Origin: a virus
Taxonomy: Duplodnaviria > Heunggongvirae > Uroviricota > Caudoviricetes
DNA length: 64,000 nucleotides
IMG/VR virus record: IMGVR_UViG_3300035696_001272
Reading direction: 5' to 3' (one strand)
The notes beneath the pieces are model-generated. The model saw only the letters and a program-made list of their open reading frames with translations. It was not told the DNA's origin and did not search any database. A program made the position numbers and the translations under genes. Of the stretch, positions 40,341 through 61,895 are shown one piece after another. Position 1 is the first letter of the stretch. Each line of letters begins with the position of its first letter.

Positions 40341-40697
40341 ATGGAAGAGATTGTAGTCGGAAAACTAAAATTCACCAAATGGTATTTGTACCAAACCAGT
40401 ATTACCAAAGATGAATGGAGACGCGATTGTCGTATTGATGCTGAAGAGGCGGTAAAGTATCCTGATAACCATGTGATTCTGATACGAGAAAAGGATATGA
40501 AGCCAGGAGCGAGTCTTGAAAGCATCGCCAGGGCACCATTCTTTTATAGGGTTAATTTTCATGGCAGCGAGGCACGTAAGTTTGCCCCTTATTTTGACAA
40601 ATTTGAGATTAGAGAAGACTTTAGCGATGTCGAGAGTGCCAAGAATTGTGTAGATAATGCTTTGCTTAGACTCAATAAGTTGATGATATTCACGTGA
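40341..40697 (+). CDS. Hypothetical protein, C-terminal tag family (RLNKLMIFT)
   Basis: 118-aa ORF; C-terminus is a divergent match to the shared 9-residue tag. Confidence 0.6.
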   Translation: MEEIVVGKLKFTKWYLYQTSITKDEWRRDCRIDAEEAVKYPDNHVILIREKDMKPGASLESIARAPFFYRVNFHGSEARKFAPYFDKFEIREDFSDVESAKNCVDNALLRLNKLMIFT

Positions 40698-40707
40698 GGT
40701 AAATATT

Positions 40708-41541
40708 ATGCCAGAAGGCCCCGAAGTTAAATTGAGTGCGGATTTGATTAGACCATTGGTAGTAAATAAAACATTAAAGAGCGCCCACTCTACGGCAAAT
40801 AGTAGATACGGCGATAGTAGAAATGGGTATTCCAGCGAATTGGGGGAATTTGGAAGATTTCAAGATTTTACTATGGACACTAAAGTACTGAGTGTCGATG
40901 TTCGTGGTAAGTTTATGTACTGGACTTTTACTGATAACTGGTACATGTCTTGTACCTTCGGTATGACTGGTCAATGGTCACCTCAAGAAGGTAAACATCC
41001 CTGTTTCATTTTTGAATTCACTGACGGCTCAAAAATGTGCTTCAATGATCACAGACATTTTGGTACGATTAAGTTTACCAACAATCCGCAAGCTATTATG
41101 GATAAACTGGATGAGCTGGGTTGGGATCCTTTGTCGATGCATTTGGTAGATAATATTCCGTGGCTTAAGTCCAAGCTGTCGCGGACTGGGAAGCCAATTG
41201 CTGAAGTTTTGATGGATCAAAGCGTTTTTGCAGGAGTTGGGAACTACATCAGGGCCGAAGCGTTATATCTATCTAAGATTTCACCATGGCGACCTGCTAA
41301 TTTGCTGACCCCTGATGAAATTCTTCGACTTGGCCAATCAGTTGTTGGTGTAATGAACGAATCTTATCAACATCAAGGCGCAACCATTAGCACCTATAAA
41401 ACTGCTTACGGTGAAGATGGTAACTACTCTACTCTATTCAAAGTTTATGGACAGAAAAAAGATCCATTGGGCAATGCAATTATTAAACAGAAGACACCAG
41501 ATAAAAGAATAATTCACTGGTGTCCAAGCGTGCAAGTATAA
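40708..41541 (+). CDS. Fpg/Nei family DNA glycosylase/AP lyase, zincless-finger type
   Basis: N-terminal PEGPEV, RGKF, FGMTG, H2TH motif AGVGNYIRAEALY; lacks the four-Cys zinc finger. Confidence 0.9.
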   Translation: MPEGPEVKLSADLIRPLVVNKTLKSAHSTANSRYGDSRNGYSSELGEFGRFQDFTMDTKVLSVDVRGKFMYWTFTDNWYMSCTFGMTGQWSPQEGKHPCFIFEFTDGSKMCFNDHRHFGTIKFTNNPQAIMDKLDELGWDPLSMHLVDNIPWLKSKLSRTGKPIAEVLMDQSVFAGVGNYIRAEALYLSKISPWRPANLLTPDEILRLGQSVVGVMNESYQHQGATISTYKTAYGEDGNYSTLFKVYGQKKDPLGNAIIKQKTPDKRIIHWCPSVQV

Positions 41542-41550
41542 AGGTGTTTC

Positions 41551-42561
41551 ATGTCTCCCACATTAGTTAAAATTCTCGTAGCTGTTGGCGCAATCGTCAC
41601 TTTAGGTGCTCTAGCATTCATTGCTTACACCCAACACGAACTCAAGGTTCAACAGACAGCAATCCAGACTCAGATTGTTCAACAACAACAATTGGTAGAT
41701 GGAATTGTTAGAAGCCAAAGTCAATACGCCACCAAGGATGATATGGCCAATTTTGCTGCCGCTAATAATATCAACCTGAAGGCCATTCAAGATAACTTGA
41801 GCACGTTAAATTCTCAGCTGGCTGCAATCAATATCATTACTGCAGATAGCACTGGACAGACAGTGGGTAATTTGCCCAGCACTAGTGTTGGAGGTAAGAA
41901 CCCTAATCCAACCACTGCGCCAGTGTGCAAAGACGGAACAACTTGCCCAAACACTGATGCATTTGGATATCAGTTGGCAACACAGAACTTAGCACTGAAT
42001 GAAGATTTTGCTAATGTCAAAGTTCCAATTGGCACTGTAGGTTTTAGTGCCTGGCAGCAATCTCCATGGAGCATCAACATTGCTCCAAGAGAATACAACG
42101 TAGATACCGTGGTTGGTGTTGATGAAAACCAAAGACAGACTTTCTACAACAAATTTACTGTCAAAGTGGGTGACAAGGATTACGATATTCCAATCAAGAA
42201 TGCTACCACCAAACAACAGTATCCATCTCCTACCTTTAGCTTCTGGAATCCAAGACTCCTGTTGGGATTAGATGGTGGTATCAATATTTCCCGTCTTACC
42301 GGAGAAATTGTCCCAAGCGTAAATCTTGGCATCATGTCCTATGGTCAATATAAAACAACCCCCGACTTCTCTATTCTAGAAATAGGTCTTGGGTATGGGG
42401 CGATTAACAAAACTGGTGAGTTGATTATCACACCAGTTGCGTATAATATTGGCAAAAATCTATTTTCGCCTCTAATGAATAACACTTACATCGGAGCAAG
42501 CTTTATGGTTGGAACTGATGGAAGCATGGGGGTCATAGGTGGCCTCAGAGTAGGATTCTAA
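41551..42561 (+). CDS. Membrane protein: N-terminal TM, coiled coil, C-terminal beta-strands (candidate spanin)
   Basis: Hydrophobic aa 5-26, Gln-rich coiled coil, alternating beta-strands ending GVIGGLRVGF. Confidence 0.5.
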   Translation: MSPTLVKILVAVGAIVTLGALAFIAYTQHELKVQQTAIQTQIVQQQQLVDGIVRSQSQYATKDDMANFAAANNINLKAIQDNLSTLNSQLAAINIITADSTGQTVGNLPSTSVGGKNPNPTTAPVCKDGTTCPNTDAFGYQLATQNLALNEDFANVKVPIGTVGFSAWQQSPWSINIAPREYNVDTVVGVDENQRQTFYNKFTVKVGDKDYDIPIKNATTKQQYPSPTFSFWNPRLLLGLDGGINISRLTGEIVPSVNLGIMSYGQYKTTPDFSILEIGLGYGAINKTGELIITPVAYNIGKNLFSPLMNNTYIGASFMVGTDGSMGVIGGLRVGF

Positions 42562-43388
42562 TGTTACATATTCTAACTTTAACTTGGAATGGTTCTGACA
42601 AATTATCCAAGCTGTATGATTCTCTTATGCCAGCTTTAGAAGGTGTGAATTATCGTTGGCTAATTAAAGATAATGCTTCTAAAGATGATACAGTTGCTAA
42701 AGCTTCTGCCTGGCAGGGTAATATTGAAGTTATCCCTTACAAAGATAATAGACAAAACTTTTCAGAGGGATGTAATTTCCTATTTCATGCTGCTAAGCCA
42801 AGTGATAATGACTTTATCATGCTACTCAATAATGATATCATCTTCAATGATAAAGAGTCTATCAAGAATATGCTGGCCATTATTCAGAAAGACAGTTCTA
42901 TAGGTGTAGTTGGTTCTAGACTATTGTATACCAATACAGATACTCTGCAACATGCGGGTGTTGTGTTTAGTCCGGCCTACAAAACTCCAATGCATTTCCG
43001 TGCAGGTCAGAAGACAGACAATGACGCATCTCGTAACAGAGAATTTCAGGTTGTTACCGGAGCTGTTTGCATTACTAAAGCTGATTACTTCAAGAACGCT
43101 TTTGATAAAAATAAGTCGGGCGTCAAAGGTATGGATGAAAATTATCATTGGGCATTTGACGACGTAGATCTGTGTCTATCTATCAAATACAACATGAACA
43201 AAAAAATTGTGTATTGCGGAAAGACCAATATTTTTCATGAAGAAAGTGCCTCTTTGAAAAAGAATCCAACTAACAAATTATTTTTGTCCCACAATCTTCA
43301 ATATCTTTTTAGAAAATGGGATAACCGATATATGATTGATCAGGACACCTACAATAAGGATCCTAGACATAATCTCTATCGAGATTAA
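42561..43388 (+). CDS. Glycosyltransferase family 2
   Basis: IKDNASKD, NFSEGCN, LLNND, LQHAG, VTGA, FDDVDLCL, HEESAS motifs. Confidence 0.85.
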   Translation: MLHILTLTWNGSDKLSKLYDSLMPALEGVNYRWLIKDNASKDDTVAKASAWQGNIEVIPYKDNRQNFSEGCNFLFHAAKPSDNDFIMLLNNDIIFNDKESIKNMLAIIQKDSSIGVVGSRLLYTNTDTLQHAGVVFSPAYKTPMHFRAGQKTDNDASRNREFQVVTGAVCITKADYFKNAFDKNKSGVKGMDENYHWAFDDVDLCLSIKYNMNKKIVYCGKTNIFHEESASLKKNPTNKLFLSHNLQYLFRKWDNRYMIDQDTYNKDPRHNLYRD

Positions 43389-43399
43389 ACTGGAGACAG

Positions 43400-44374
43400 A
43401 TGAAGAAAGTACTTGTCACAGGTTCATGCGGATTTATTTTTGGTAATTTTATTCGTAAAGCTATCTACGATCAAAATCAGAAAAAACCACAGGACAGGAA
43501 TTATACATTTACGAGTGTGGATCGTGTAACAGCGAATGCTCTCAACTCAATGTATTGGAACAAGAACCACATCTTTCATCCGGCAGATATTCGTGATGCC
43601 CACGTCATGGATATTATCTTCCAATTTGAGAAGCCAGATATCGTCATCCATGGAGCGGCTGAAACCTTCGTGGATACTTCATTGAAGGATCCTAATTCCT
43701 TCGTGACTTCCAACGTATTGGGAACCCAAGTCATAATCAACTGCTGTCTAAAACACCAGGTTGAAAAGCTAATTTATATTTCTACAGATGAAGTCTATGG
43801 TCAACTTACCAGCGATTCTGAGCCTGCCTGGACAGAAGAATCGCCCCTCAATCCTAGAAACCCCTATTCAGCCACAAAAGCAGCCGGGGAACTGATGGTA
43901 AAGGCCGCTCACCAGACGCATGGGTTAATTTATAACATTACCAGAAGCTCTAACTGCTATGGACCTCGCCAATTGCCTGAAAAGCTGATTCCAAAGGCTA
44001 TAAAGTGCGTGTTGAACGGCGAAAAGATTCCAATATACGGCAAGGGCCAACAGATTAGGGATTGGACCTACGTGGCGGATAACTGTTCGGCTTTAATGAC
44101 TATTTTGGATAAAGGCGCCCCAAATGAAATTTATAATATTTCAGCCAAGCAAGAATTCACCAATATAGAGACCATCCAATCCGTTTGTAATGCGATGAGC
44201 AAAGGACACGACTTGATTTCATTCATTGAAGATCCAAGAGGCGGACACGATTTTAGGTACTCTATCACTACTGATAAAGTCCAAAAATTGGGATGGAAGC
44301 CCTCTTACAAATTCAAAGATGGTATTAAGGATACAGTACAGTGGTACTTAGACAACCAGTGGTTTTTGAAGTGA
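43400..44374 (+). CDS. rfbB: dTDP-glucose 4,6-dehydratase-like extended SDR
   Basis: TGSCGFI, H.AAETFVD.S, STDEVYG, PYSATKA, SNCYGPRQ.PEKLIP, RDW.YV.D, GHDFRYS motifs. Confidence 0.85.
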   Translation: MKKVLVTGSCGFIFGNFIRKAIYDQNQKKPQDRNYTFTSVDRVTANALNSMYWNKNHIFHPADIRDAHVMDIIFQFEKPDIVIHGAAETFVDTSLKDPNSFVTSNVLGTQVIINCCLKHQVEKLIYISTDEVYGQLTSDSEPAWTEESPLNPRNPYSATKAAGELMVKAAHQTHGLIYNITRSSNCYGPRQLPEKLIPKAIKCVLNGEKIPIYGKGQQIRDWTYVADNCSALMTILDKGAPNEIYNISAKQEFTNIETIQSVCNAMSKGHDLISFIEDPRGGHDFRYSITTDKVQKLGWKPSYKFKDGIKDTVQWYLDNQWFLK

Positions 44375-44399
44375 TATAAATAGGTCGCAAGGAGCAATA

Positions 44400-45761
44400 A
44401 TGCCAGCTACGTCAGTTACAGAACAGGGACAAAAAGAAGAAGTAGTGGACGATGTGTCCAGTGTAGAAGTTAAATCAGAAGATGCGGTAGATGCCAGCAA
44501 AATGGCCGCGCTAAAAGCTAAAAATCAAGCCAAGCAACAGGAGAGTAAGATGGCTGCAAAAATTGTGTCGAAAAAAGAAAGAAGTATCGCTTTAGGAGTA
44601 GTTGGATCTGGTCAAGCTGGTTCTAGAATTGCTGAAGCCTTTTATAAGCTAGGTTATGATTCAATAGCAATTAACACTGCTATGCAAGACTTAAAGTTCA
44701 TTGATATTCCAGATTCTAACAAGTTACTTTTGGAATACGGTTTGGGTGGAGCTGCTAAGGAAATTGAAATTGGTCGTGCTGCGGCCGATTCTCATCGTGG
44801 AGAAATTCTACAACTCATTAATGAGAAACTGCAAAATTCGCAAGTCAACGTACTTTGCTTGAGTTTGGGCGGTGGTTCTGGTGCAGGCTCTTGCGAAACT
44901 ATGGTAGATGTTCTGTCCGGTTTAGGTAAGCCATTAGTCGTAATCACTGTGTTGCCAATGGATACTGAAGATGCACAGACTAAAGCAAATGCTCTAGAGA
45001 CGCTCTCTAAGTTAGCTAAGTTAACTCAAAGTAAGAGAGTTAATAATTTGATTGTGGTAGATAATGCTAAGATTGAGGCTATCTATCATAACATCAGCCA
45101 AGTCGATTTCTACGGTGTAGCCAATAAGGCCATTGTGGAACCAATCGATATCTTCAACTCACTTTCTTCCATGGCTTCATCTGTCAAAGGTCTTGACCCA
45201 ATGGAATGGGGCAAGCTGTTTACTGATGGTGAAGGATTAACTGTCTATGGTGAATTAACAGTTGATAACTTTGCAGAAGATACGGCAATCGCTGAAGCAG
45301 TTGTCAATAATCTAAATGGCAATTTGTTAGCTGGCGGTTTTGATCTGAAGCAATCTAGATACGTTGGTGTCATTATTGCTGCCAACAAAGAGACTTGGTC
45401 GAAGATTCCAAGTTCTAGCATTACTTATGCTATGGCGATGGTAAATGATCAATGTGGAACTCCCAAAGGTGTATTCAAGGGAATCTATACTGTAGAAACT
45501 CCTGACCCAGTTGTCAAAGTATACAGTATGTTCAGCGGTCTAGGATTGCCAGATTCACGTGTTACCCAGTTGAAGAAGGATGCTCAAGAACTTCTACAAA
45601 ATGTTAAGGGCAAAGACGAACAAAGAAACCTCAACCTTAATTTGGACACTGGAACTAACGAAACTGTTTCTGCCGCTCAAAAGGTTAAAGAGAAGATCGC
45701 TCAAAAGTCCTCCGCTTTCGGTAAGCTAGTTGGTGGTGTTGTTGACAGGAGAAAAGCATAA
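44400..45761 (+). CDS. Tubulin/FtsZ-family GTPase (PhuZ/TubZ-like)
   Basis: G.GQAG.RI, AINT...DL, tubulin signature LGGGSGAG, VLP, VVDN; C-terminal coiled tail. Confidence 0.85.
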   Translation: MPATSVTEQGQKEEVVDDVSSVEVKSEDAVDASKMAALKAKNQAKQQESKMAAKIVSKKERSIALGVVGSGQAGSRIAEAFYKLGYDSIAINTAMQDLKFIDIPDSNKLLLEYGLGGAAKEIEIGRAAADSHRGEILQLINEKLQNSQVNVLCLSLGGGSGAGSCETMVDVLSGLGKPLVVITVLPMDTEDAQTKANALETLSKLAKLTQSKRVNNLIVVDNAKIEAIYHNISQVDFYGVANKAIVEPIDIFNSLSSMASSVKGLDPMEWGKLFTDGEGLTVYGELTVDNFAEDTAIAEAVVNNLNGNLLAGGFDLKQSRYVGVIIAANKETWSKIPSSSITYAMAMVNDQCGTPKGVFKGIYTVETPDPVVKVYSMFSGLGLPDSRVTQLKKDAQELLQNVKGKDEQRNLNLNLDTGTNETVSAAQKVKEKIAQKSSAFGKLVGGVVDRRKA

Positions 45762-46057
45762 TGGAATCAGAAACACTTAAACACTTTATCGGTAAGGATG
45801 TTGAAATCTTGGTGGCAGGAGTTTGGGTTGAAGGTCATATGACCCCAATCGTAAAGGGAGTAATTACATTGCTTCCTTTTACAGATACAGCTGAATTCTA
45901 CGGTCCTACCGCATTAAAGATGGACGTCGTCCAAGCCATTAGACAAGTTAAAAGACAAAAGCAAGCTGCTGCACCTGTACAAACACCAACTGATGGTTCA
46001 GTTAGATCCAGTTTAGAACAAGTAAATCCAGCTCAACGTTTTGTGGTGAAAAAATGA
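45761..46057 (+). CDS. Putative Sm/LSm-fold protein
   Basis: LKHFIGKDVEILVAGVWVEG...YGPTALKMDVVQAIR resembles Sm1/Sm2 motifs. Confidence 0.45.
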   Translation: MESETLKHFIGKDVEILVAGVWVEGHMTPIVKGVITLLPFTDTAEFYGPTALKMDVVQAIRQVKRQKQAAAPVQTPTDGSVRSSLEQVNPAQRFVVKK

Positions 46058-46341
46058 AGCGAACAAAGAAATTAACTCGTAAACAAAAAAGGGCAGCTTT
46101 GCTTGCAACATTGGCAACCCCAAAGCCACCGCGTAAACCATTCAAACAAAAAGAGATGCTCAAGCTCTCTGTTGTATTGAAGAGGCAAGCTGTAAAGAAA
46201 GCTACCAAGCTATTAGCTCGTCAACAGAAGAAAGAAAAGCAAGGGCATGAACATCATGATCATGAGCATCATCATGTTCATGAAGAACACGAGCATGAGC
46301 ATGAAGAACACGAGCACGAAGGACATGAGGAACACGAGTAA
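46054..46341 (+). CDS. Small basic protein with His/Glu-rich C-terminal tail
   Basis: Lys/Arg-rich N-terminal ~60 aa, then HEHHDHEHHHVHEEHEHEHEEHEHEGHEEHE; overlaps both neighbours. Confidence 0.6.
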   Translation: MKRTKKLTRKQKRAALLATLATPKPPRKPFKQKEMLKLSVVLKRQAVKKATKLLARQQKKEKQGHEHHDHEHHHVHEEHEHEHEEHEHEGHEEHE

Positions 46342-46682
46342 TGCAAATTCAAGTATTGGAAAATTTTCTCAATCAACAAGTTGAGGTAACTGTTGCGAAT
46401 AAAACGTTCAGCGGCATCCTGAGAATGTCTGAATCGTGTGCCAACGCAATAGAACTAGATCCTACCGACGACCACGTGACGAGACGCTACGGGGCTGTGA
46501 CTATAATGGCAGACCAAATCGTTACTATTCGTGCGATGAAGCCGCGCCAAGTGGAAAAAGATATGGATATAGACTCAGAGGATTGGGATGATGTAAAATG
46601 TGCCTCTTCTGATTTTAAAACTACTGGAAGTGATGTTAAAATGCCTGCCGACCTACAAGACTATGTGAAAGATAAGGTGTAA
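46341..46682 (+). CDS. Putative Sm/LSm-fold protein
   Basis: LENFLNQQVEVTV..KTFSGIL.....NAIEL...YGAVTIMADQIVTIR fits the LSm pattern. Confidence 0.5.
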   Translation: MQIQVLENFLNQQVEVTVANKTFSGILRMSESCANAIELDPTDDHVTRRYGAVTIMADQIVTIRAMKPRQVEKDMDIDSEDWDDVKCASSDFKTTGSDVKMPADLQDYVKDKV

Positions 46683-47516: not shown

Positions 47517-47594
47517 TTCCATAACGGCCCCGGCAGCTTTTCTATTTGAGTAAGATTTGTCGAGAAAAAGGTACCAGTTATATATGGTACCACA

Positions 47595-49112
47595 ATGGCC
47601 AAAATTGTTATCAAGGGCAATACCTCTCAAATTATCGAAGAGCCGGATGTTGAACACATCTTGGCCCTAGACAAACATTTGTCATTTTTCGTACAAGGCG
47701 CAGAACACACCGCCGCCTTCAAGGGATTCCTCAATCGTGATGGTGACTATGTCAAGTGGGATGGCTTTAAGAAGTTACTGACACCAACTCTACAATTCGC
47801 AACTGGTCTGGTGGAAAGAGTACAGGATTTCTATCGCGAGGCCAATAAACCAATTGAGATAGTGGATAAACGTCCAGCCAAATCGGTTGGTGTTCCTAGA
47901 AATATCTTAGACAATTTAAAAAAGATTGATAAGAGCCCGTATCCATATCAAACAGAAATTTTGGATGTCATTGACAAGAATGATCGAGGAATTATTAAAG
48001 TAGCTACTGGAGGTGGCAAATCTTTAATTGCGGCACTTATTGCTGCCAAATTAGGAAAAAAATGTATCATCTATGTAATTGGAAAAGATCTACTTTATCA
48101 ATTCCATCAATTTTTTTCGCAATGTTTCGATGAGCCAATTGGAATTATTGGAGATGGTCTGTGTCAGATTCATGACATCAACATAGCCAGTGTCTGGACT
48201 GTAGGTCAAGCCATTGGCATGAAGAAAAATGAAATCTTACTTGACTCGGATGATGATGAGGAAAGCCTAAGCAAAACAAAATACGCTGATATTCTAAAGA
48301 TGATGAAAGAAGCTAAACTTCACATCATTGATGAATGTCATATGTCGGCATGTGACACTATCCAACAGATTTACAAACACTCTCGGTCAGAGCACATCTA
48401 TGGTTTGAGTGGCTCTCCTTGGCGTGATGATGGTGCCGATCTTATGATCGAATCCATTCTTGGCAAATACATTGTTAACATACCGGCTTCCCGCCTAATC
48501 AAAGAGGGTTATCTAGCACAAGCAGTTATACGTTTTAGGGTAGTGCCGCCATATCCTGTTCCACTAGATAGAGTTTACCAATCAGTTTACAAACGCTACG
48601 TAGTGGAGAATGATGTTCGCAACGGATTGGTATTAGAGGCAGCTAAAGCCCTGGTCGGTAAGGGCTATCAAACTCTAGTCTTATTCAACAGTCTAAAGCA
48701 TGGCAAGATTCTATATGACGTTTTCAAGAAGCATATGAAATGCGCCATTCTAGATGGCTCTAATGATAAAGACGAAAGAGAAGCAGTTAAAAAAGATTTG
48801 ATGAATCATAAAATTGATTGCGTCTTGGCTTCTCGCATTTTTGACATTGGTGTAGATATTCCAAGCCTTTCTGGTTTGGTTATAGCTTGTGGCGGCAAAT
48901 CCACTGTTAAAGCTTTACAAAGAGTTGGTAGAGTTATTCGCAAGTATCCTGGTAAGAAATTTGCTGTAGTAATCGACTTTGCCGATCAAGCACCATTCCT
49001 AGATACACATTCTAGAACAAGATTTCGTATTTATACATCTGAAGAAGGATTTGATGTTTCCTGGCCAACTGAAATAAAACAGCCAAGAAAATCGAAAAAG
49101 AAACATGACTAA
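47595..49112 (+). CDS. Superfamily 2 DNA helicase (UvsW/XPB-like)
   Basis: ATGGGKS Walker A, IIDECH, GLSGSP.R.D, GVDIPSL, QRVGRVIR. Confidence 0.9.
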   Translation: MAKIVIKGNTSQIIEEPDVEHILALDKHLSFFVQGAEHTAAFKGFLNRDGDYVKWDGFKKLLTPTLQFATGLVERVQDFYREANKPIEIVDKRPAKSVGVPRNILDNLKKIDKSPYPYQTEILDVIDKNDRGIIKVATGGGKSLIAALIAAKLGKKCIIYVIGKDLLYQFHQFFSQCFDEPIGIIGDGLCQIHDINIASVWTVGQAIGMKKNEILLDSDDDEESLSKTKYADILKMMKEAKLHIIDECHMSACDTIQQIYKHSRSEHIYGLSGSPWRDDGADLMIESILGKYIVNIPASRLIKEGYLAQAVIRFRVVPPYPVPLDRVYQSVYKRYVVENDVRNGLVLEAAKALVGKGYQTLVLFNSLKHGKILYDVFKKHMKCAILDGSNDKDEREAVKKDLMNHKIDCVLASRIFDIGVDIPSLSGLVIACGGKSTVKALQRVGRVIRKYPGKKFAVVIDFADQAPFLDTHSRTRFRIYTSEEGFDVSWPTEIKQPRKSKKKHD

Positions 49113-49374
49113 AACTGATGGTAACGATTGGGTATTCCGTTTAGGCGAAATTGAAGTAATAGATGACGACACGGGGGACGTGTACACCCTAGAAGTAGGT
49201 TATGTAGTTACTCAGACAACTTTGTATGTTAGATTATGGAAGGGCGCAGAATTTGAATTCATGGGTGGTGATTTTATTTATGATTTGCAGGATTGCCTTG
49301 CTGTATCGCCAAAGATGTTAAAGGTATGTGTCGATCGCGCCAAGCGTATAGAAAAATTGAAAGCATTTGCATGA
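49105..49374 (+). CDS. Hypothetical protein, C-terminal tag family (RIEKLKAFA)
   Basis: 89-aa ORF overlapping both neighbours; carries the shared C-terminal tag. Confidence 0.65.
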   Translation: MTKTDGNDWVFRLGEIEVIDDDTGDVYTLEVGYVVTQTTLYVRLWKGAEFEFMGGDFIYDLQDCLAVSPKMLKVCVDRAKRIEKLKAFA

Positions 49375-49979: not shown

Positions 49980-50425
49980 TTCCAGAAAAAGGTCAGCAGG
50001 TTAAGTGTTACATGCGTTCCGGTATTGTGCTAGAAGGAACAGTGGTAAGTTGGGGCAATGCAGAAGTTATATTAAAACTTTTGGATCGAAACTTAATGAT
50101 TATCCATCGGCCGACCGACGATATAATGCTCACCAAGGTTATGATTTTCGAAGAACCTGCCGAGTCGCAGGATGACGAACCAAAACCAGAAAAACCAATG
50201 CCTGATGCGAAGGGAAGAGAAGATCGTATAAGGAAGAAATTGCAGGAAATGCAAGATTCTCACGATCTTGATCTTCAGAAAAAGAGTGTCGAAGAGTTGC
50301 GACAAATGATCTTGGAAGAAGATAGAAAAATGATTGCCGAAAAGACGAAAGAACATTTCGGCTCTATTAGTTCTCCAAAGATGACGCAATACAGTTCGCC
50401 TTATACCCCCAAGCGTCATAAGTAA
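49976..50425 (+). CDS. Hfq/Sm-like N-terminal domain plus charged helical tail
   Basis: GQQVKCYMRSGIVLEGTVVSW...VILK resembles the Hfq Sm1 pattern V.IYL.NG..L.G.I.SFD...ILLK. Confidence 0.45.
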   Translation: MIPEKGQQVKCYMRSGIVLEGTVVSWGNAEVILKLLDRNLMIIHRPTDDIMLTKVMIFEEPAESQDDEPKPEKPMPDAKGREDRIRKKLQEMQDSHDLDLQKKSVEELRQMILEEDRKMIAEKTKEHFGSISSPKMTQYSSPYTPKRHK

Positions 50426-52555: not shown

Positions 52556-52566
52556 TAGAGGTCAAA

Positions 52567-52746
52567 ATGCAAGATAAAGTAGTGGCGGAAGCCGTCCGAA
52601 TTGAGTATGAAGAGAAGACTGGAAAGCTGTTTATTGTCTTCGAAGTTAAAGATGAAAAATATAAGCAAGATATCAAAAAGAACTGGACTAAAGATATAGA
52701 ATATAGGTTAGTAGATAAAACATTAGTTGAGTCAAGTAATGAATGA
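52567..52746 (+). CDS. Small hypothetical protein (59 aa, not in ORF track)
   Basis: GAGG SD then MQDKVVAEAVRIEYEEKTGKLFIVFEV...; fills the gap after dnaB. Confidence 0.65.
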   Translation: MQDKVVAEAVRIEYEEKTGKLFIVFEVKDEKYKQDIKKNWTKDIEYRLVDKTLVESSNE

Positions 52747-53122
52747 ACGAGAGATTAAAAATCTTAGACGATTGGTATCTGAAATAGATGTTATCTGTTT
52801 ATGTTTAGCAGATCACAATTATGCGCATACATATCTTAAAGATTTATACGAGCCCTTTTATTCTGATCAAATGATAGATGTTGTTAAGAGAGGCTGTTTC
52901 GGTCGTTTCAAACATTCAGAAAATGTTTGGGCAGGTCATTGTTTTGTTGGTAAGAAAACCAAGCGTGGACACTTCAAAATTTTGATAGGTAATCAAGAGC
53001 CAAGTGACGCGATTTGGGGACAACCAACATGGTCGGAAAATTTCAGTTTATCAGATGATAAAGCCGTGGAAAAAGCAATCAATATGGTAGAAAGATTTAA
53101 TAACTTGAAAGCTTTTTGGTGA
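52739..53122 (+). CDS. Hypothetical protein, C-terminal tag family (RFNNLKAFW)
   Basis: Probable ATG at 52739; carries the shared C-terminal tag. Confidence 0.65.
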   Translation: MNEREIKNLRRLVSEIDVICLCLADHNYAHTYLKDLYEPFYSDQMIDVVKRGCFGRFKHSENVWAGHCFVGKKTKRGHFKILIGNQEPSDAIWGQPTWSENFSLSDDKAVEKAINMVERFNNLKAFW

Positions 53123-53129
53123 GGAACAA

Positions 53130-53465: not shown

Positions 53466-53478
53466 TCTTACTATCAAA

Positions 53479-53670: not shown

Positions 53671-53676
53671 GGATAA

Positions 53677-53868: not shown

Positions 53869-53872
53869 CGTC

Positions 53873-54022: not shown

Positions 54023-54116
54023 ATTCAGCGTGTTGTTGCGTTGATGGCGATCTATTTTCTTGATCGTATCAATAATTGAGTATACCATTACTTTAGAACT
54101 GAAGTGAGAAAAATTA

Positions 54117-54746: not shown

Positions 54747-54800
54747 CCGTCACCAAATAACAAGTTGGGACTTTAACTTAATTCTCTTCAAGGATGGATT

Positions 54801-57305
54801 ATGCAGGGATACATTTATTCTCAGGTTTTGGAAGCATCAATAGAATACTTCGGAGGCGATGAATTCGCAGCTAAGGTATTTGTAGACAAATATGCTTTGC
54901 AAGACATGAAAGGTACATATTTGGAATTGACTCCAACAGATATGCACCACCGTTTAGCAAAAGAGTTCGCAAGGGTTGAAAATAAATATCCCAATCCACT
55001 TTCCGAAGATATAATTTTTTCTTTGCTAGATCATTACAAGTTTATTGTACCACAGGGCAGTCCTATGTCTGCTATTGGTAATCCATATCAGCTTCAAAGT
55101 TTATCTAATTGTTTTGTCATTCAAGGCGTTCATTCAGATAAACTAGATTCTTATGGTGGAATTATGTTAGCCGATCAAGAGCTAGCCCAAATCATGAAGC
55201 GCAGAGGTGGTGTTGGTTTGGATATTTCAGGCATTCGACCTAAAGATGTAATCACTAACAACGCAGCTAGAACAACTGATGGCATCGGCGTATTCATGGA
55301 GAGGTTCTCCAATACTTGTCGTGAGGTCGCACAGAATGGTAGGCGTGGCGCAGAGATGATTACCATTTCAGTTAATCATCCGGAGATTGAACGATTTATC
55401 AATATCAAACGTAATCTAACCAAAGTAACTGGTGCTAATATTTCTATTCGTCTAACTGATGAATTTATGAAGGCCGTAAAGAACGATCAAGAATATACTC
55501 TCCGTTGGCCAGTTGATCGTTCTCCAGAAGATGCAAAAGTGACAAAGCAGGTAAAGGCCAAGGAGATTTGGGATCAGATAATAGACTCCGCTTGGGCATC
55601 TGCCGAGCCGGGTCTTTTGTTTTGGGACACTGTTAAGAAAAACACTCCTTCTGATATCTACCATGAATTTGGTCACAATTCAATTTCTACTAATCCATGT
55701 GGTGAAATTGTATTGCCCGCTTATGATGCTTGTAGATTATTGGTTCTCAATTTATCCTCTTATGTCAAAAATCCATTTACCGATGATGCCTCTTTTGATT
55801 TCAAAAAGTTTCATCAGCATACTATAGTTGCTCAGCGTTTGATGGATGACATTATTGATTTAGAGATTGAGTGCATTGATAGAATTATTGCTAAGATTGA
55901 GAAGGATCCGGAGCCAGAAGAAGTCAAGGCAGCTGAAGTTCGGTTATGGCATAAGATTCGTCGTATGAACACGTCTGGCCGCAGAACTGGTTTGGGTATC
56001 ACTGCTTTAGGAGATACTCTTGCTATGTTAGGCATCAAGTACGGCTCTCCGAAGTCCATTGAAATGACTCGTAAGATTTATCGTGCTTTGGCTGTTGGTT
56101 CACACACCTCTTCCTGCATAATGGCTAAGGAGCGTGGAGCATTCCCAATCTTCAATTACGAATTAGAAAAGAATCACGCTTACCTCAAGGATATTTTTGC
56201 TGACTGCACTCCTGAAGTAAGAAAAATGTGGAAAACAACCGGCCGAAGAAACATTGCTAACACAACCACGGCCCCCGCAGGATCAGTATCCTCGCAGACT
56301 AGAACCTCTTCCGGTATTGAGCCAGTTTATATGCTAGAGCACATTCGACGCAAAAAGCATAATCCGTCTGATAAAAATGCACGTGTAGACTTCGTAGATG
56401 CGTTGGGTGATTCGTGGCAAGAATTTACTGTTTACCACCACGGTGTTAAAGAGTGGATGCTGGCTACTAACGAAACTGATATTACCAAGTCACCATATTT
56501 TGGAGCGACTGCTAACGAAATTGATTGGGTGGCGTCTGTTGATTTACAGGCTGCCGCACAAGAATCAATTGATCATAGCATTAGCAAAACTTGTAACTTG
56601 CCCGAGAGCGCAAGCAAAGATTTGGTTTCTCAGGTGTACATGAGAGCCTGGGAAAAGGGATGCAAAGGATTTACAGTTTATCGTGATAAGTGTCGCGATG
56701 GTGTGTTGATTAGCAAGCCAACTGCCACTCGTAAACCTGATGAAAGGCCAGAAGCCATTGAAGTATCTATGGCGCCTAAACGTCCTCTGGAACTTCCATG
56801 TGAAATTAAGAAAGCAAAAATTCAGGGTGAGCAGTGGACCATTTTCGTTGGGCTCCTCAATAACAAACCGTATGAAGTTTTCGGAGGTTTGTCTAGGTAT
56901 GTAGATATCCCAAATAAATTCAAAATGGGTAAAGTCGTCAAGAATGGTAAAGTCGACGATATCACAACCTACAATTTGATTATTGGCGAAGGTGAAGATC
57001 AAATGACCATTAAAGATATCGCTAACGTTTTTGAGAATGGTAACTTTGGAGCCTTTACCAGAACTATTTCGCTAGCTTTGCGTCATGGCACTCCGGTGCA
57101 GTATGTGGTGGAGCAGCTTCAAAAAGACAAACATTCTGATATTACTTCTTTTTCTAAAGTGATTGCTAGAGTGCTTAAGAACTATATTGCCGACGGTACC
57201 AAGTCTACTGCCGAACGAAAATGTCCTAAGTGTGGTAGCGAAAATTCCTTTGCCTATCAAGAAAAGTGTCTTAAGTGCATGAATTGTGATTGGAGCAAGT
57301 GCTAA
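54801..57305 (+). CDS. nrdJ: Class II (B12-dependent) ribonucleotide reductase
   Basis: SNCFV, GGVG, TNPCGEI, RRTGLG, TTAPAGS, SSGIEP, SISKT.N, KG.TVYRD; C-terminal zinc-ribbon; no beta subunit adjacent. Confidence 0.85.
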   Translation: MQGYIYSQVLEASIEYFGGDEFAAKVFVDKYALQDMKGTYLELTPTDMHHRLAKEFARVENKYPNPLSEDIIFSLLDHYKFIVPQGSPMSAIGNPYQLQSLSNCFVIQGVHSDKLDSYGGIMLADQELAQIMKRRGGVGLDISGIRPKDVITNNAARTTDGIGVFMERFSNTCREVAQNGRRGAEMITISVNHPEIERFINIKRNLTKVTGANISIRLTDEFMKAVKNDQEYTLRWPVDRSPEDAKVTKQVKAKEIWDQIIDSAWASAEPGLLFWDTVKKNTPSDIYHEFGHNSISTNPCGEIVLPAYDACRLLVLNLSSYVKNPFTDDASFDFKKFHQHTIVAQRLMDDIIDLEIECIDRIIAKIEKDPEPEEVKAAEVRLWHKIRRMNTSGRRTGLGITALGDTLAMLGIKYGSPKSIEMTRKIYRALAVGSHTSSCIMAKERGAFPIFNYELEKNHAYLKDIFADCTPEVRKMWKTTGRRNIANTTTAPAGSVSSQTRTSSGIEPVYMLEHIRRKKHNPSDKNARVDFVDALGDSWQEFTVYHHGVKEWMLATNETDITKSPYFGATANEIDWVASVDLQAAAQESIDHSISKTCNLPESASKDLVSQVYMRAWEKGCKGFTVYRDKCRDGVLISKPTATRKPDERPEAIEVSMAPKRPLELPCEIKKAKIQGEQWTIFVGLLNNKPYEVFGGLSRYVDIPNKFKMGKVVKNGKVDDITTYNLIIGEGEDQMTIKDIANVFENGNFGAFTRTISLALRHGTPVQYVVEQLQKDKHSDITSFSKVIARVLKNYIADGTKSTAERKCPKCGSENSFAYQEKCLKCMNCDWSKC

Positions 57306-57334
57306 ATATCAATTAACTAGCATTGCTATTAAAG

Positions 57335-57736: not shown

Positions 57737-59043
57737 GAAGAACATACGTACTTGATACGTCTACCTTAATTTATGATCCTTGTGCTTTTAAACAATTCTC
57801 TGACAGCGATGTGACAATCCCAATTGCTGTTCTCAATGAACTTGACAAGCTCAAAAAGATGCCAAGTGATGTTGGTAAGAATGCAAGAGTCGCTATTAGA
57901 CTGCTAGATGAAATTAGTGGCAAAGGCGATATTAGCACTGGCATCTTGTTAGATAATGATATCCTTCTAAAAGTAGATGCCACCTATATTGATTTGTCTG
58001 AACCGCAATATCGTGGGCTGGGCGCTCCTGATTATGCTGACACTCAGATTCTAGCCTGTGCTCAGTCTATCTGGCATTCGCATACATTGCATGATGTTAT
58101 TTTGGTTAGCAATGACATCAACCTGCGTATCAAAGCCAAAGCTCGTGGCATTGAGGCCGAAGCTCATGAAGGAACCAAGTCTTCCTTAAGTGATTTGTAT
58201 TCTGGCATTCAAACCGTTCACAATGAAGAGGCTGGTCTGGAATTGCAAAGACTGGGAGCAATCAATGCGACACAATACGGATTGCAATTATCTCCCAATG
58301 AGTGTGTTTTGTTTCAGAGCAACAACGGAGATGGCATTGCCATGGGTCGCAAAACTTCTTCCGACATTGTTAGATTGATACGCAAGTCTTATCCGTGGGG
58401 CATTGCTAGCCGCAACAAAGAGCAAGCTTTCTCCATTGATCTAATATTAGATAGAAGTGTTAACTTGGTTACACTAATTGGTAGAGCTGGTACCGGCAAA
58501 AGCTTAATGGTGTTATCTTCTGCTTTAGAATTAGTTCTCAACAGAAAAGAATATGACAAATTCATTATCTACCGACCAATTCAGCCAGTGGGTAACGACA
58601 TCGGTTATCTACCTGGTACAATGGAAGAGAAATTGGCTCCATGGTTTGGTGCTATTATGGACAATTTTGAAATCCTCTTCTCCAATAAAAATGGTGGTGA
58701 CTGGTTAAGAGAATTGGAAATGTATCAAAGAAAGGGTAAGATCGAAATGGAAGCTATTACCTATATTAGAGGTCGTAGTATTCCAAACGCCATTATCTTA
58801 GTTGATGAATGTCAAAACTTAAGTAAAGAAGATGTTAAAACAATACTTACCCGTGCAGGTGAAAACACCAAAATTATCCTAACAGGTGATATAGAGCAGA
58901 TCGATAATTCGTCACTAGATGCAACTAGCAACGGATTAACTCATGTTATCGAAAGGTTCAAGGATTCTGAGCTGGCCGGACATATTACTTTCACTCAAGG
59001 TGAACGTAGCAAGCTAGCCTCAATAGCCGCTGAAATTTTGTAA
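57733..59043 (+). CDS. phoH: PIN-PhoH (PhoH2-type) protein
   Basis: PIN motifs VLDTS, ELDKLK, D..IL, SND.NLR.KA; PhoH motifs G.AGTGKS, GYLPG...EK, RGRS, DECQN, TGD..QID. Confidence 0.9.
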   Translation: MRRTYVLDTSTLIYDPCAFKQFSDSDVTIPIAVLNELDKLKKMPSDVGKNARVAIRLLDEISGKGDISTGILLDNDILLKVDATYIDLSEPQYRGLGAPDYADTQILACAQSIWHSHTLHDVILVSNDINLRIKAKARGIEAEAHEGTKSSLSDLYSGIQTVHNEEAGLELQRLGAINATQYGLQLSPNECVLFQSNNGDGIAMGRKTSSDIVRLIRKSYPWGIASRNKEQAFSIDLILDRSVNLVTLIGRAGTGKSLMVLSSALELVLNRKEYDKFIIYRPIQPVGNDIGYLPGTMEEKLAPWFGAIMDNFEILFSNKNGGDWLRELEMYQRKGKIEMEAITYIRGRSIPNAIILVDECQNLSKEDVKTILTRAGENTKIILTGDIEQIDNSSLDATSNGLTHVIERFKDSELAGHITFTQGERSKLASIAAEIL

Positions 59044-59053
59044 GGAGTTTTTA

Positions 59054-59434
59054 ATGTCCAATAAAATGAAACAAATTGATCAACCTGCTCAACCTGCTCC
59101 TGAAGTTGTGTTGACCCCAGAAGTCGTAGCACCAGCCACTACTGCCAATGGCGTACCACTTGGTTCTGTGGTCCCTGTTCCGGTAGCGACCCCAAAACCA
59201 GAAAAGTTAGCAGATGTGGATAAATTGACTTTAGAATTGTCCAGGCAACAAAGACAAACCGCATTGGCAGAAGCAAGAACCGCTTTGGCCCAGAATGAAA
59301 AAGCAGAATTGGCTTATAAGTATGTTGTGCTACAACTTTATATGAAGTATGGTCTAACTGATGCAGATGCTATTAGTGAGGCCGGTGATATCGTTAGAGG
59401 TGGCGCTCTTCCCAAAGCACCAGTCGGAAAATAA
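59054..59434 (+). CDS. Hypothetical protein (Pro-rich N-terminus, coiled coil)
   Basis: AAGGAG SD; 126-aa ORF. Confidence 0.6.
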   Translation: MSNKMKQIDQPAQPAPEVVLTPEVVAPATTANGVPLGSVVPVPVATPKPEKLADVDKLTLELSRQQRQTALAEARTALAQNEKAELAYKYVVLQLYMKYGLTDADAISEAGDIVRGGALPKAPVGK

Positions 59435-59685
59435 TGGATTTCGAAGAACTCATCTTTCTAATTAAGATAAGAGAATATGTTGTTAACTCAACTGCTCTTC
59501 CTGCCATTGACAGGAAAGTAGTTGGCGAATTAAATGGAATTCTCTTACTTTTAGATGAAAAAATTATCGGCATCTTGACAGGCCCCGACTTCAAGGATTA
59601 CATTGGCTATAAAGATGTGCAGTTAGCTAAAGAGCGTGCTGCTAAGATTACGAATATTTATTCTGGAATCAAAGGTAGAAAGTAA
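59434..59685 (+). CDS. Hypothetical protein
   Basis: 83-aa ORF with TAATG overlap. Confidence 0.55.
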   Translation: MDFEELIFLIKIREYVVNSTALPAIDRKVVGELNGILLLLDEKIIGILTGPDFKDYIGYKDVQLAKERAAKITNIYSGIKGRK

Positions 59686-59692
59686 TTAACTA

Positions 59693-60856
59693 ATGAGAAC
59701 GAACGCTCCTAAAGAGTTGTTCACTGAAAACAGCTTAGTCCGTCTGAAGGGCAAAGATTGGTTAGATAAACAAAGGGTCGCTGGCAGAATTGCTGCCGAG
59801 ACCCTTTCTCTTTTGCAAGAGATTATTTTTAGTGGTGAACATACTAAACTGTCTGAACTAAATAAAATAGCCGAAGACTATATCGTAAATGCTGGCGGAA
59901 TTTGCACCTTCAAAGGTTACAAAGGATTTCCTGCTGGTGTTTGTATCTCTGTTAATAAACAATTAGTTCATGGCATACCAACTGACTACGTATTACAAGA
60001 GGGCGATCTGGTTAGCTTTGATCTTGGCGTTACTATAGGTGGTGCTATTGCGGATACGGCCATCACTTGTATTTTTGGTCAGCCCAAATCTGATCAACAC
60101 GTCCGATTGGTAAAAGCTACTGAGGAAGCTTTGATGAAAGGCATTCAGGCCATTAAAGTTGGTGATAGACTTGGTGCCATTGGTTACGCCATTTCTAGAT
60201 GCGGTAAGGGTTATGGTTATGGAGTCATCAACAATTACGGTGGTCATGGACTGGATTGGGACATTCCACATGCCCCGCCTTTTGTAGAAAATAAATCTGA
60301 TCCTGAAAAAGGAATTAGAATTCAACCTGGCCTGGCTATTGCTATAGAGCCGATGTTTGTTCTTGGGTCAACTGTCACCACAACGCTTGATGATGGTTGG
60401 ACAGTGGTAACTCCTGATTTGAGCGCTCACTTTGAACATTCGGTGTTTGTACATGAAAGCCATGTTGAGATTATTACTGATAGAATTATAACAAAAACTC
60501 CTATTCAAGAAATTCTGGATTATTGCAAAAATTTGATTAATATTCCATACGTATATTCCACAGATTGGGAAGAGATAGTTAAAGATTCGATGAATTTCAA
60601 GGATCTGATTCCTTTTGTTGGAGATCATAGTCAAAATTCTTTCTATATTCATTTCCCGAATCCGACTGATCACGTTGCTAATTCTATTAGAGAAAAATTA
60701 GATGCAGTAGCAAAACAAGAGCCTAATCTAGTATGGTGTCTGTATCAGCAAAATAATCCGGGACTTACTTTGCACACTATTTCTTCCCGAAGTTCATCAC
60801 CGGAACAAATTGTAGACGAGTTAAAACGATTAAGAAATCTAAAAGCGTTTTTATGA
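59693..60856 (+). CDS. map: Type I methionine aminopeptidase fused to a 123-aa tag-family domain
   Basis: YKGFP..VCISVN..LVHGIP, FDLG, ADTA, GGHG, AIEPM and SAHFEHSV metal ligands intact; extension ends RLRNLKAFL. Confidence 0.9.
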   Translation: MRTNAPKELFTENSLVRLKGKDWLDKQRVAGRIAAETLSLLQEIIFSGEHTKLSELNKIAEDYIVNAGGICTFKGYKGFPAGVCISVNKQLVHGIPTDYVLQEGDLVSFDLGVTIGGAIADTAITCIFGQPKSDQHVRLVKATEEALMKGIQAIKVGDRLGAIGYAISRCGKGYGYGVINNYGGHGLDWDIPHAPPFVENKSDPEKGIRIQPGLAIAIEPMFVLGSTVTTTLDDGWTVVTPDLSAHFEHSVFVHESHVEIITDRIITKTPIQEILDYCKNLINIPYVYSTDWEEIVKDSMNFKDLIPFVGDHSQNSFYIHFPNPTDHVANSIREKLDAVAKQEPNLVWCLYQQNNPGLTLHTISSRSSSPEQIVDELKRLRNLKAFL

Positions 60857-61101
60857 AGACGGAGCCGTTGAAATTATCACAGCTAGAAAACTATAGAATC
60901 ATAGAATGTCTGAATGATTATTCTCCTAAATTCATTCAAGATTTTAATAGGTCAATGCCAGTCGTTGCCGGTAATGATATTTACATTTTAGTTTGGCGTG
61001 CAGGTGATCGTACATACGAACTCGAACTGGATTGGAATAATCTATATGATGACTTTTGGATCAGGTGGGATCGCTTTACAAACTTAGTGGCTTTTCTATG
61101 A
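60853..61101 (+). CDS. Hypothetical protein, C-terminal tag family (RFTNLVAFL)
   Basis: ATGA overlaps at both ends; carries the shared tag. Confidence 0.65.
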   Translation: MKTEPLKLSQLENYRIIECLNDYSPKFIQDFNRSMPVVAGNDIYILVWRAGDRTYELELDWNNLYDDFWIRWDRFTNLVAFL

Positions 61102-61403
61102 GAAAAATAAAAGAGGCAGCCAGAATAAAATTTGAAGAGCACCAAAAAATAGGGGAGGAACTTTCTCAGTATTCGAGGAATATAGTAGATGAGTTTGAAA
61201 AAGTATTTCCTCCTGAAACTCATTATGACCCACCCGGAAGTTCTGCTGGAGGAAAATGGGGCAAGCATAATTACTATCATCTAAATATTATTCCCAAAGA
61301 AGGGCGAGCCCATGTCACCAGCGTAACCCTTCTCTACGAAAATACTTTCAATCATTTTTGGTTGAGATGGAATAGATTTAAAAACCTAAAGGTATTTCTA
61401 TGA
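61098..61403 (+). CDS. Hypothetical protein, C-terminal tag family (RFKNLKVFL)
   Basis: Probable ATG at 61098 (ATGA overlap); carries the shared tag. Confidence 0.65.
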   Translation: MRKIKEAARIKFEEHQKIGEELSQYSRNIVDEFEKVFPPETHYDPPGSSAGGKWGKHNYYHLNIIPKEGRAHVTSVTLLYENTFNHFWLRWNRFKNLKVFL

Positions 61404-61576
61404 AAATTACATTTGAAGATAAAAGCTATATTGAGTGTGTTAAGTCAGATAATCCTGGCAAGATAGTTGTTACAATCTCGGCCAAAGATCATACTGATCC
61501 TCTCAAGAAAATCACCAACGCAGTAGAGATTACTGTCGAAGAATTCAAGAAGTTGATTTCTGATGTACAGCTCTAA
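61400..61576 (+). CDS. Small hypothetical protein (58 aa, not in ORF track)
   Basis: ATGA overlap; MKITFEDKSYIECVKSDNPGKIVVTISAKD...DVQL. Confidence 0.6.
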   Translation: MKITFEDKSYIECVKSDNPGKIVVTISAKDHTDPLKKITNAVEITVEEFKKLISDVQL

Positions 61577-61895
61577 AGTCTGTGATTTGTTAAAAACGTA
61601 CGATTGGAATTGGGTTGATAAGTTTTTGTTTTCTGCTTTTGGCAAATTTTCATATGTGCACACACTTTCTGAATGCGGTTTAGATTGTTATCTCAGCAAT
61701 CGTCATGATGTTAGTAAAAGTCACCCGGATGATGCTGGCTGTGTGGACTTTTTACTCTACACCGGAGAAATAATAACAACGTGGGATAACAAAAAGAAAG
61801 CGGGAGTGAGGCTCTACAATATGGTTGATTTCAAAGATCCAGATAAGTTTATTGAAGAATTCGCTAGGTACAGTAACCTAAAGGCATTCCTATGA
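61563..61895 (+). CDS. Hypothetical protein, C-terminal tag family (RYSNLKAFL)
   Basis: 110-aa ORF; carries the shared tag; ATGA overlap with the next gene. Confidence 0.65.
   Translation: MYSSKVCDLLKTYDWNWVDKFLFSAFGKFSYVHTLSECGLDCYLSNRHDVSKSHPDDAGCVDFLLYTGEIITTWDNKKKAGVRLYNMVDFKDPDKFIEEFARYSNLKAFL

Follow-up and report, generated by a model that had tools for sequence, protein, structure and literature searches.

A shared nine-residue C-terminal ending on small accessory proteins of uncultured huge phages, a candidate address label

Seven genes in a 64,000-nucleotide stretch of Caudoviricetes DNA (IMG/VR record IMGVR_UViG_3300035696_001272; hereafter, the window) encode proteins that finish with one and the same nine-residue ending, [KR]-hydrophobic-x-[NK]-L-x-x-F-x, directly before the stop codon. 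This ending (the tag) keeps a strict register with the chain end, selection acts on it at the level of the peptide, and it is borne by proteins (the carriers) whose bodies are unrelated and whose genes behave like cassettes; all of this was observed directly in the window and in related phages. No paper describing the ending was found when the literature was searched by motif string and by topic, and it looks like an undescribed address label. The explanation that we prefer is a portable C-terminal recognition peptide by which the carriers dock on one shared partner, a reading that we hold to be quite possible although we stop short of calling it probable; that a single partner reads the tag is something we infer.

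Occurrence, register and selection

The seven C-termini listed by the first-pass annotation were all recovered at the ends of + strand open reading frames (ORFs) of the window (Table 1). The strict expression R[FLIY].[NK]L[KVM][AVI]F.$, searched as a motif in the six frames, gave seven matches and all seven abut a stop codon, whereas the looser pattern R-hydrophobic-x-x-L-x-x-F matched at 24 places and was terminal only in the same seven ORFs. The tag was scored with a 10-residue matrix trained on the tagged genes of another genome (the relatives G004 or G005, see below). The seven tagged ORFs reached 10.7-24.1 bits and none of the remaining 46 ORFs of the window exceeded -9.4 bits; with the G004 matrix, 0 of 20,139 internal segments reached 8 bits. 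TGA is the stop codon in all seven, and in five it forms an ATGA overlap with the next gene; in the other two the next start codon lies at most 11 nt after the stop and the TGA is found inside a GAGG-like stretch. The Arg, Leu, Lys, Ala and Phe codons of the tag vary synonymously among the seven copies; synonymous variation had been noted earlier.

On IMG/VR contigs of 340-481 kb there are relatives of the window's DnaB with 78-82% identity, which places the window among uncultured huge phages of this size range; the nearest cultured phage by the same protein is Bacillus phage G (27% identity). All the large ORFs of the window are on the + strand. Very large virion genes occupy 1-38 kb and are followed by glycosylation, tubulin-like, replication, sigma, ribonucleotide reductase and PhoH genes, and the window is collinear with G004 at 321-391 kb. 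G001, G004, G005, G006 and phage G were analysed as whole sequences, with gene calls in the relatives that are crude (longest ORFs); G002 is 83% complete, and a single DNA pattern underlies both its low count and the classification of G008 as tag-less. The core proteins of G006, which lacks the tag, are about as similar to those of the window as are the core proteins of the tag-bearing G005.

The DNA pattern for NLKAFL-stop was met at 23 IMG/VR loci, eight of which had an open frame preceded by [RK]-hydrophobic, and at one IMG/VR locus there were nine tandem small genes, all with the ending. The counts of LKAF-x-stop were 35 in G004, 13 in G005, 9 in G001, 4 in G003 and 3 in G002, against 0-1 in the reversed control; G006 had none and G008 one. 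When all genes ending in L-x-x-F-x were counted, 91 of 737 were found in G004, 56 of 596 in G005 and 28 of 685 in G001, where two or three were expected; there were 10 of 485 in G006, and the 684 genes of Bacillus phage G showed no enrichment (four, the chance level). Phe at -2 was seen in 150 genes of G004, 103 of G005 and 68 of G001, compared with 24 in G006. The share of proteins with the tag in the relatives is 2-15%, and in this group no fewer than 16 IMG/VR contigs show enrichment of the ending.

The register is exact. Among the genes of G004, 91 have L-x-x-F followed by one residue, one has no residue and three have two residues after the Phe. All 27 occurrences of KLKAF-x were terminal, as were 35 of the 36 of LKAF-x. 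Matrices applied across genomes found terminal matches in 44 of 596 and 71 of 737 genes, and internal ones in only 9 of 116,817 and 7 of 131,012 windows. The motif is therefore far commoner at chain ends than internally, and the earlier view of a feature bound to the C-terminus holds. The consensus in the relatives is [KR]-hydrophobic-x-[KN]-L-K-A-F-[ILTW], with upstream hydrophobic residues every three or four positions; Phe at -2 and [LMI] at -5 are near invariant, and variants such as KMKAFL, KIKAFL and K-x-Y-x-x-F-S occur. Taken together with the residues that precede it, the tag describes a basic amphipathic C-terminal helix in which Lys residues flank the hydrophobic positions -1/-2, -5, -8 and -12; the AlphaFold2 (AF2) models show it as helical. 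Such exactness of register argues for recognition of the chain end itself and against a helix that is merely structural or lipid-binding.

Selection acts on the peptide. At tag positions -5 to -2 in the relatives the synonymous codons match genome-wide usage, with the exception of an excess of TTC at Phe -2 in G005. A DNA repeat or a signal at the RNA level was rejected because the codons vary and follow the usage of each genome. For the genes in the position after DnaB, the mean pairwise identity was 68% in the last nine residues and 34% in the body, and for the Zn-ribbon paralogues (see below) the corresponding values were 43% and 18%.

Three conserved core proteins end in L-x-x-F-x even in the tag-less G006. 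They are encoded at G004 202810-203328 (about 170 amino acids, aa), 187756-188796 (about 346 aa) and 275007-276068 (an SLT-lysozyme of about 353 aa), each with its orthologue in G006; these may have been served by the same reader from the outset, or the ending could be there by chance.

Carrier bodies and their genomic setting

The bodies were compared after removal of the last 12 residues, with clustering by iterated hidden Markov model (HMM) searches. Once the tag was removed, 196 carriers fell into 113 HMM clusters, and among the 15 largest clusters the best HHalign probability was 10.7%. The earlier statement that the bodies are dissimilar thus stands for the group, but not for the window genes 60853-61101 and 61056-61403, which are full-length paralogues (24% identity over 96 columns). 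Two clusters are large, a CPxC Zn-ribbon family of 41 members and an HRxDGPA repeat family of 19 members. From two AF2 models and the repeat sequences, at least three architectures could be distinguished: Zn-ribbon/all-beta, alpha/beta and HRxDGPA repeats. The model of a Zn-ribbon member is all-beta (predicted local distance difference test, pLDDT, 79; last helix 91-107) and that of the window protein 52727..53122 is alpha/beta (pLDDT 76; last helix residues 111-130), so that in both the tag is the end of a confidently predicted helix of 17-20 residues. Foldseek against the PDB gave no match at E<=0.001 for either model, and a VIA wide fold search gave best Z values of 4.3 and 5.8, within the stated noise of the tool. 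The HRxDGPA family has relatives in Agrobacterium phage Atu_ph07 and in a Celeribacter phage that match in the repeats only; the C-terminal stretch of the Atu_ph07 protein aligns with the start of the helix and has no KLKAF ending. No Pfam or PHROGs family was common to the 90 carriers of G004, the larger tagged proteins were also uninformative, and the seven window bodies had no informative match in either database beyond the M24 of the fusion described below.

The median length of the carriers is 100 aa, and their genes either form tandem arrays or occupy slots singly between core genes. They are located among replication, tRNA and nucleotide-metabolism genes, and the virion module is free of them, both at 1-38 kb of the window and in G004, where none of the 22 genes at 320-360 kb, the central part of the syntenic module, is tagged. 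An ATGA overlap with the next start was observed in 44% of tagged genes as against 18% of the others. In the window the slots are glycosyltransferase|Fpg, helicase|next gene, DnaB plus 59 aa|next gene, aminopeptidase|58 aa and 58 aa|182 aa. Each of these five holds from one to five tagged genes in at least one relative, with bodies not recognisably related by BLAST, and all five are empty in G006. In the slot after DnaB, the window has the alpha/beta protein (52727-53122) and G004 an HRxDGPA repeat protein (381416-381682), with the tag on both. Since the slots are filled in a variable manner and are empty in G006, the carriers are an insertable, fast-turnover accessory class, and the idea of a variable accessory set scattered singly or in runs between core genes was borne out by the comparison.

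Table 1. Tag-bearing genes of the window and the release factor 2 (RF2) gene of its relatives
Feature	Coordinates	Strand	Ending and stop	Score	Remarks
118-aa orphan protein	40341..40697	+	RLNKLMIFT-TGA	16.5 bits	between glycosyltransferase gene and Fpg/Nei gene
89-aa orphan protein	49105..49374	+	RIEKLKAFA-TGA	19.3 bits	after helicase gene; ATGA overlap onto next gene
131-aa protein	52727..53122	+	RFNNLKAFW-TGA	24.1 bits	TTG start uncertain; downstream of DnaB and a 59-aa gene
387-aa apparent fusion	59693..60856	+	RLRNLKAFL-TGA	21.1 bits	Met-aminopeptidase (residues 1-264) plus tagged module of about 120 aa
82-aa protein	60853..61101	+	RFTNLVAFL-TGA	10.7 bits	paralogue of next gene
101-aa protein	61098..61403	+	RFKNLKVFL-TGA	17.7 bits	listed start TTG 61056
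110-aa orphan protein	61563..61895	+	RYSNLKAFL-TGA	20.1 bits	ATGA overlap onto next gene
RF2 gene	L061:5360-6439 (G004); G001 406809-407903; G005 106874-107962			prfB-level	

The first of the seven proteins has no Pfam or PHROG family; in its slot G004 has four tagged genes, G006 none. The slot of 49105..49374 is occupied by a tagged gene of 115 aa in G004 and is empty in G001 and G006. At the position of 52727..53122, eight relatives all keep the ending on bodies that are 15-29% identical to the window protein. The product of 59693..60856, judged by its sequence, is a gene fusion or the result of a lost stop. The Pfam M24 match covers residues 27-255, the tagged module spans from about 60485 to 60856, and the orthologous aminopeptidases of G001, G004 and G005 (267-275 aa) end where the extension starts; in G004 a separate tagged gene of 83 aa follows directly after the aminopeptidase. 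An enzyme with a grafted tag was accordingly rejected in favour of a Met-aminopeptidase joined to a small tagged gene, and the body length of about 80-130 aa given by the first-pass annotation does not apply to this protein. Members of the family of 60853..61101 at locus L028 end in NRFLNLKAFL and NRFCKLKAFW. For 61098..61403, an ATG at 61098 that overlaps the previous stop is a likelier start than the listed TTG. The slot of 61563..61895 has tagged genes of 91 aa in G001, 126 aa in G004 and 147 aa in G005 and is empty in G006; the stored ESM Atlas model of 61563-61895 is poor and had no look-alike.

Some neighbouring genes deserve mention in their own right. The 834-aa ribonucleotide reductase of the window (54801-57305) is 86% identical to that of G001, its best matches in G004, G005 and G006 being 23-24%, and it appears from these sequences to have been replaced within an otherwise collinear region. 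At 44400-46682 a tubulin/FtsZ-family gene, whose identity to its counterparts in relatives (G006 among them) is 72-89%, is coupled to three small genes; these are poorly conserved even in G001, and one is rich in His and Glu. At 62494-63999 there is a collagen-like Gly-X-Y repeat protein that continues past the end of the window, and the long antisense ORFs over this gene are repeat artefacts. Transfer-messenger RNAs (tmRNAs) are phage-encoded in G001 (170047-170403, tag peptide ANDNAFAMAA) and in G006 (207749-208102, ANDNAFAPMALAA); we take the style of these tag peptides to be proteobacterial, presumably a hint to the host.

Candidate readers and rival explanations

The proteins of the relatives were searched for a reader and none was found. 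Pfam PF09116 (gp45 C domain) and PF00712 (beta-clamp N domain), the only two clamp models run, had no match in five relatives. In the same five, BRCT was found only in a ligase of about 630 aa, also present in the tag-less G006, so that no small BRCT protein was seen, and PDZ_2 gave one sub-threshold match in one genome, not a conserved phage PDZ. Two tandem bona fide ClpP genes (ClpP1P2; E 1e-45 to 1e-52) occur in all five relatives examined, G006 included. Several AAA proteins are found in tag-bearing and tag-less genomes alike, but no ClpX-type partner was recognised among them; a conserved protein of about 370 aa had AAA_2 matches, all of them weak. The ClpP operon (L051:1440-4369 in G004; conserved in G001, G005 and G006) also encodes a DksA/TraR-type zinc-finger protein and a 463-aa helical protein of no known family, of which only the N-terminal 190 residues are conserved in G006.

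Phyletic subtraction (present in G001, G004 and G005, absent from G006) left 40 proteins of G004. A scan of roughly the 20 largest gave metabolic or RNA-repair enzymes, RF2 or unnamed proteins, those with a named family being mostly NAD, RNA-repair or Nudix-type enzymes, and no obvious reader was among them. At G004 145583-148094, 189454-198909 and 102061-102897 there are NAMPT and NMNAT-Nudix (NAD salvage), RlaP and PNKP (RNA repair) and PARG, which are common to the three tag-bearing genomes and missing from G006.

A true RF2 (prfB; NCBIfam 398 bits; SPF and GGQ motifs) is encoded in G001, G003, G004 and G005, whereas searches of G006, G008, phage G and G002 (83% complete) did not find it. 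Its gene lies inside the densest tagged array in each of the 16 contigs examined and adjoins a conserved kinase-like protein of 209-224 aa; at the full-length RF2 loci, 9-26 of the 31-44 genes within 10 kb have Phe at -2. Suppressor tRNAs were located in G001 (172924-173255 and 50073-50149), G004 (212881-213035) and G005 (333703-333777). Amber suppressors (anticodon CTA) occur in all three of these genomes and not in G006, G001 also has an ochre suppressor (TTA), and the tRNA totals are 59 in G001 and 38 in G004. TAG stops are about fourfold depleted in tagged genes (4 of 248 vs 108 of 1823, p=0.0025). The preference for TGA was rejected as an independent signal, because the excess derives from the ATGA overlaps and disappears once these are set aside. 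RF2 together with suppressor tRNAs is the known code-change kit of recoded phages (bioRxiv 10.1101/2021.08.26.457843). The link between RF2 and the tag is suggestive only, since this kit has its own explanation and since the contigs with RF2 are all related, so that their co-occurrence amounts to few independent events.

The kinase-like protein beside RF2 (L061:2985-3632 in G004) has the kinase-like motifs SSGSSRIVY, KLAKN, PGD and IDAGLT, and its tip, EFYEDSSS, is acidic and rich in Tyr; among named ESM Atlas clusters the nearest are phage kinase families, with a low share of members. It was discarded as a candidate reader, for it also occurs in G008, which has no RF2 and one match to the strict pattern. 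A complex prediction of this protein with a Zn-ribbon carrier scored 0.00, which is not evidence either way.

The preferred explanation, a portable peptide read by one shared partner, could operate as follows. The nine residues would make up the final two turns of the basic amphipathic helix, whose free carboxyl would have to come exactly one residue past the invariant Phe; Leu -5, Phe -2 and the terminal carboxylate would plug into a pocket of the partner, and Lys/Arg at -9, -6 and -4 may touch its acidic rim. The basic flanks suggest an acidic or phosphate-rich counterpart. Many small, fast-changing accessory proteins would in this way gain one common destination, their variable bodies being interchangeable target-binding or effector heads. 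Several points weigh against this explanation. It is unusual for 10% or more of a proteome to compete for one site; neither a reader nor a suitable PDZ, BRCT or clamp protein came out of the searches described above, and the scanned part of the subtracted set was no more revealing; the tag may be partly packed on its own body, as a continuation of the predicted helix; the crude gene calls and the single DNA pattern behind the status of G008 and G002 limit the comparison; and the link with RF2 and the suppressor tRNAs points, suggestively, to reading on the ribosome. The proposal of the first-pass annotation, a portable signal for one receptor, is supported in part: its terminal peptide, unrelated bodies and accessory carriers hold, and no receptor was found.

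That the tag would be a C-terminal degron, by which an unfoldase-protease, the host's or one with the phage ClpP1P2, destroys early accessory proteins at a set time, is unlikely though worth keeping in mind. ClpX reads ssrA-LAA or the basic tail of MuA through the free C-terminus, and the strict dependence on the chain end (91 genes vs 1 and 3, a matter of sequence statistics only), the nonpolar last triplet preceded by Lys, the small carrier genes in non-structural regions and the tandem ClpP genes of all five relatives would agree with such a role; but ClpP1P2 is also present in the tag-less G006, the unfoldase was not recognised, the tag is the end of a predicted stable helix and not a floppy tail, and the invariant -9, -6 and -5 lie further back than in the degrons known to us. 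Rather unlikely, taking its options jointly, is a nascent-chain or termination signal in which the last nine residues act in the ribosome with the stop codon in the A site, be it to tune release by the phage RF2, to compete with the suppressor tRNAs or to promote re-initiation on the overlapping next gene. TnaC offers a precedent, being a peptide that blocks RF2. The distance from the tag to the stop codon does not vary, RF2 is present in the four genomes and absent from the four named above, it sits within the densest tagged array, the amber suppressors are absent from G006, and tagged genes are poor in TAG stops and rich in ATGA overlaps. Carried further, the tag would be a code read on the ribosome and not a docking peptide: while still on the P-site tRNA, the last nine residues would alter the handling of the stop codon, through release by the phage RF2, protection from amber/ochre suppressor tRNAs or hand-over of the ribosome to the overlapping gene, and about a tenth of the genes would form a translational regulon under the phage release factor; this we consider unlikely to much the same degree. 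Against the ribosomal explanations stand the points made above on the code-change kit, the few independent events and the vanishing TGA excess, as well as a hydrophobic periodicity over 15-20 residues that denotes a folded amphipathic helix; moreover, known arrest peptides belong to short leader ORFs, whereas the tag closes about 100 folded proteins.

An amphipathic helix of the type found at the C-terminus of MinD or FtsA, which would keep the carriers at the inner face of the host membrane, is improbable. The helix is basic, with Leu and Phe on one face flanked by Lys, and by eye the carriers have no signal peptide or transmembrane segment; neither a fixed distance to the chain end nor strict conservation of Phe -2 and Leu -5 is required for lipid binding, however, and more than 95% of cases keep the exact register. 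Quite improbable, too, is a capsid-loading signal, by which the carriers would enter the large head and leave it together with the DNA. Encapsulins, whose shells have the HK97 fold, do use C-terminal loading peptides, and the carriers are small, fast-evolving and resemble host-takeover proteins, but virion loading, one of the options of the first-pass annotation, fits poorly with a virion module that has no tagged gene; the location of the carriers among replication, tRNA and nucleotide-metabolism genes and their translational coupling to those genes argue against it. As for a single, very diverged paralogue family whose last helix is part of the fold, which had been named beforehand as the finding that would overturn the proposal, it was looked for and is very improbable. 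The tandem paralogue arrays (41 Zn-ribbon and 19 repeat-protein members), the paralogous window genes 60853 and 61098 and the helical tag in both AF2 models would speak for it; yet once the tag is removed the families show no similarity at the profile level (15 largest compared), the secondary-structure architectures of the two modelled proteins and the repeat family differ, a structural helix would tolerate plus or minus one residue where the register is exact, and the repeat family occurs elsewhere without the ending.

Known systems and significance

The spacing L-x-x-F-hydrophobic resembles that of clamp and PIP-box motifs. In T4, the C-termini of gp43, gp55 and gp33 bind the sliding clamp with a motif that is hydrophobic and acidic and follows a flexible linker (PMC2988020). 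The likeness to the tag consists in a short, interchangeable peptide at the extreme C-terminus that docks several unrelated phage proteins on one hub. The tag differs in being basic (Lys/Arg at -9, -6 and -4, with no acidic position) and in ending a helix, and the T4 clients are a handful of DNA or RNA polymerase components whereas the tag is borne by small orphan proteins that number from tens to about 100 in a genome. The analogy with the T4 clamp drawn by the first-pass annotation consequently fits poorly, the two clamp models being without match as well.

The ssrA and MuA signals of ClpX share with the tag the free C-terminus, MuA also being basic and then Ala plus hydrophobic, and these phages do encode ClpP1P2; those signals are, however, unstructured tails of 3-8 residues, while the tag is conserved to -9 and beyond within a helix and ClpP is also found in the tag-less relative. 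The cargo peptides of encapsulins, like the capsid targeting sequence of T4, send diverse cargo to one shell by means of one short terminal peptide, but their genes adjoin those of the shell or head, the T4 signal is N-terminal and cleaved, and the carriers avoid the virion module. In the ankyrin/PRANC (F-box-like) proteins of poxviruses, large and fast-evolving viral families join a variable target part to a constant C-terminal element for one machine; PRANC is a folded domain of one homologous family, the tag a helix of 9-20 residues on non-homologous bodies. TnaC, for its part, also acts at a fixed distance from the stop codon and is linked to RF2, here encoded by the phage in tagged arrays; it is a 24-residue leader with a terminal Pro and a ligand, unlike the tag, which ends about 100 folded proteins. 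The tag may also resemble the C-terminal peptide of FtsZ (IPAFL) and the C-terminal ribosome-binding helix of E. coli peptide deformylase. Bacillus phage G has a lineage-specific expansion of Zn-ribbon proteins, and the survey of jumbo phages that records this expansion, and ClpP in some phages, makes no mention of a terminal tag (PMC7824862). Dozens of small Zn-ribbon paralogues are thus common to phage G and to the largest carrier family described here (41 members), although those of phage G do without the ending (4 of 684 genes in L-x-x-F-x).

Huge phages have hundreds of small orphan genes that are studied singly, and one peptide on 2-15% of the proteome would group many of them in one pathway. 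The tag would also be of direct use in experiments: a single bait might be enough to bring down the partner, and changing Phe -2 or adding one residue could switch off the entire set. Should the partner prove to be a host hub or a protease, the carriers would amount to a collection of natural adaptors or inhibitors; should the tag act together with the phage RF2, translation would be controlled in a new way. For annotation, the tag is a practical marker of this group of phages.

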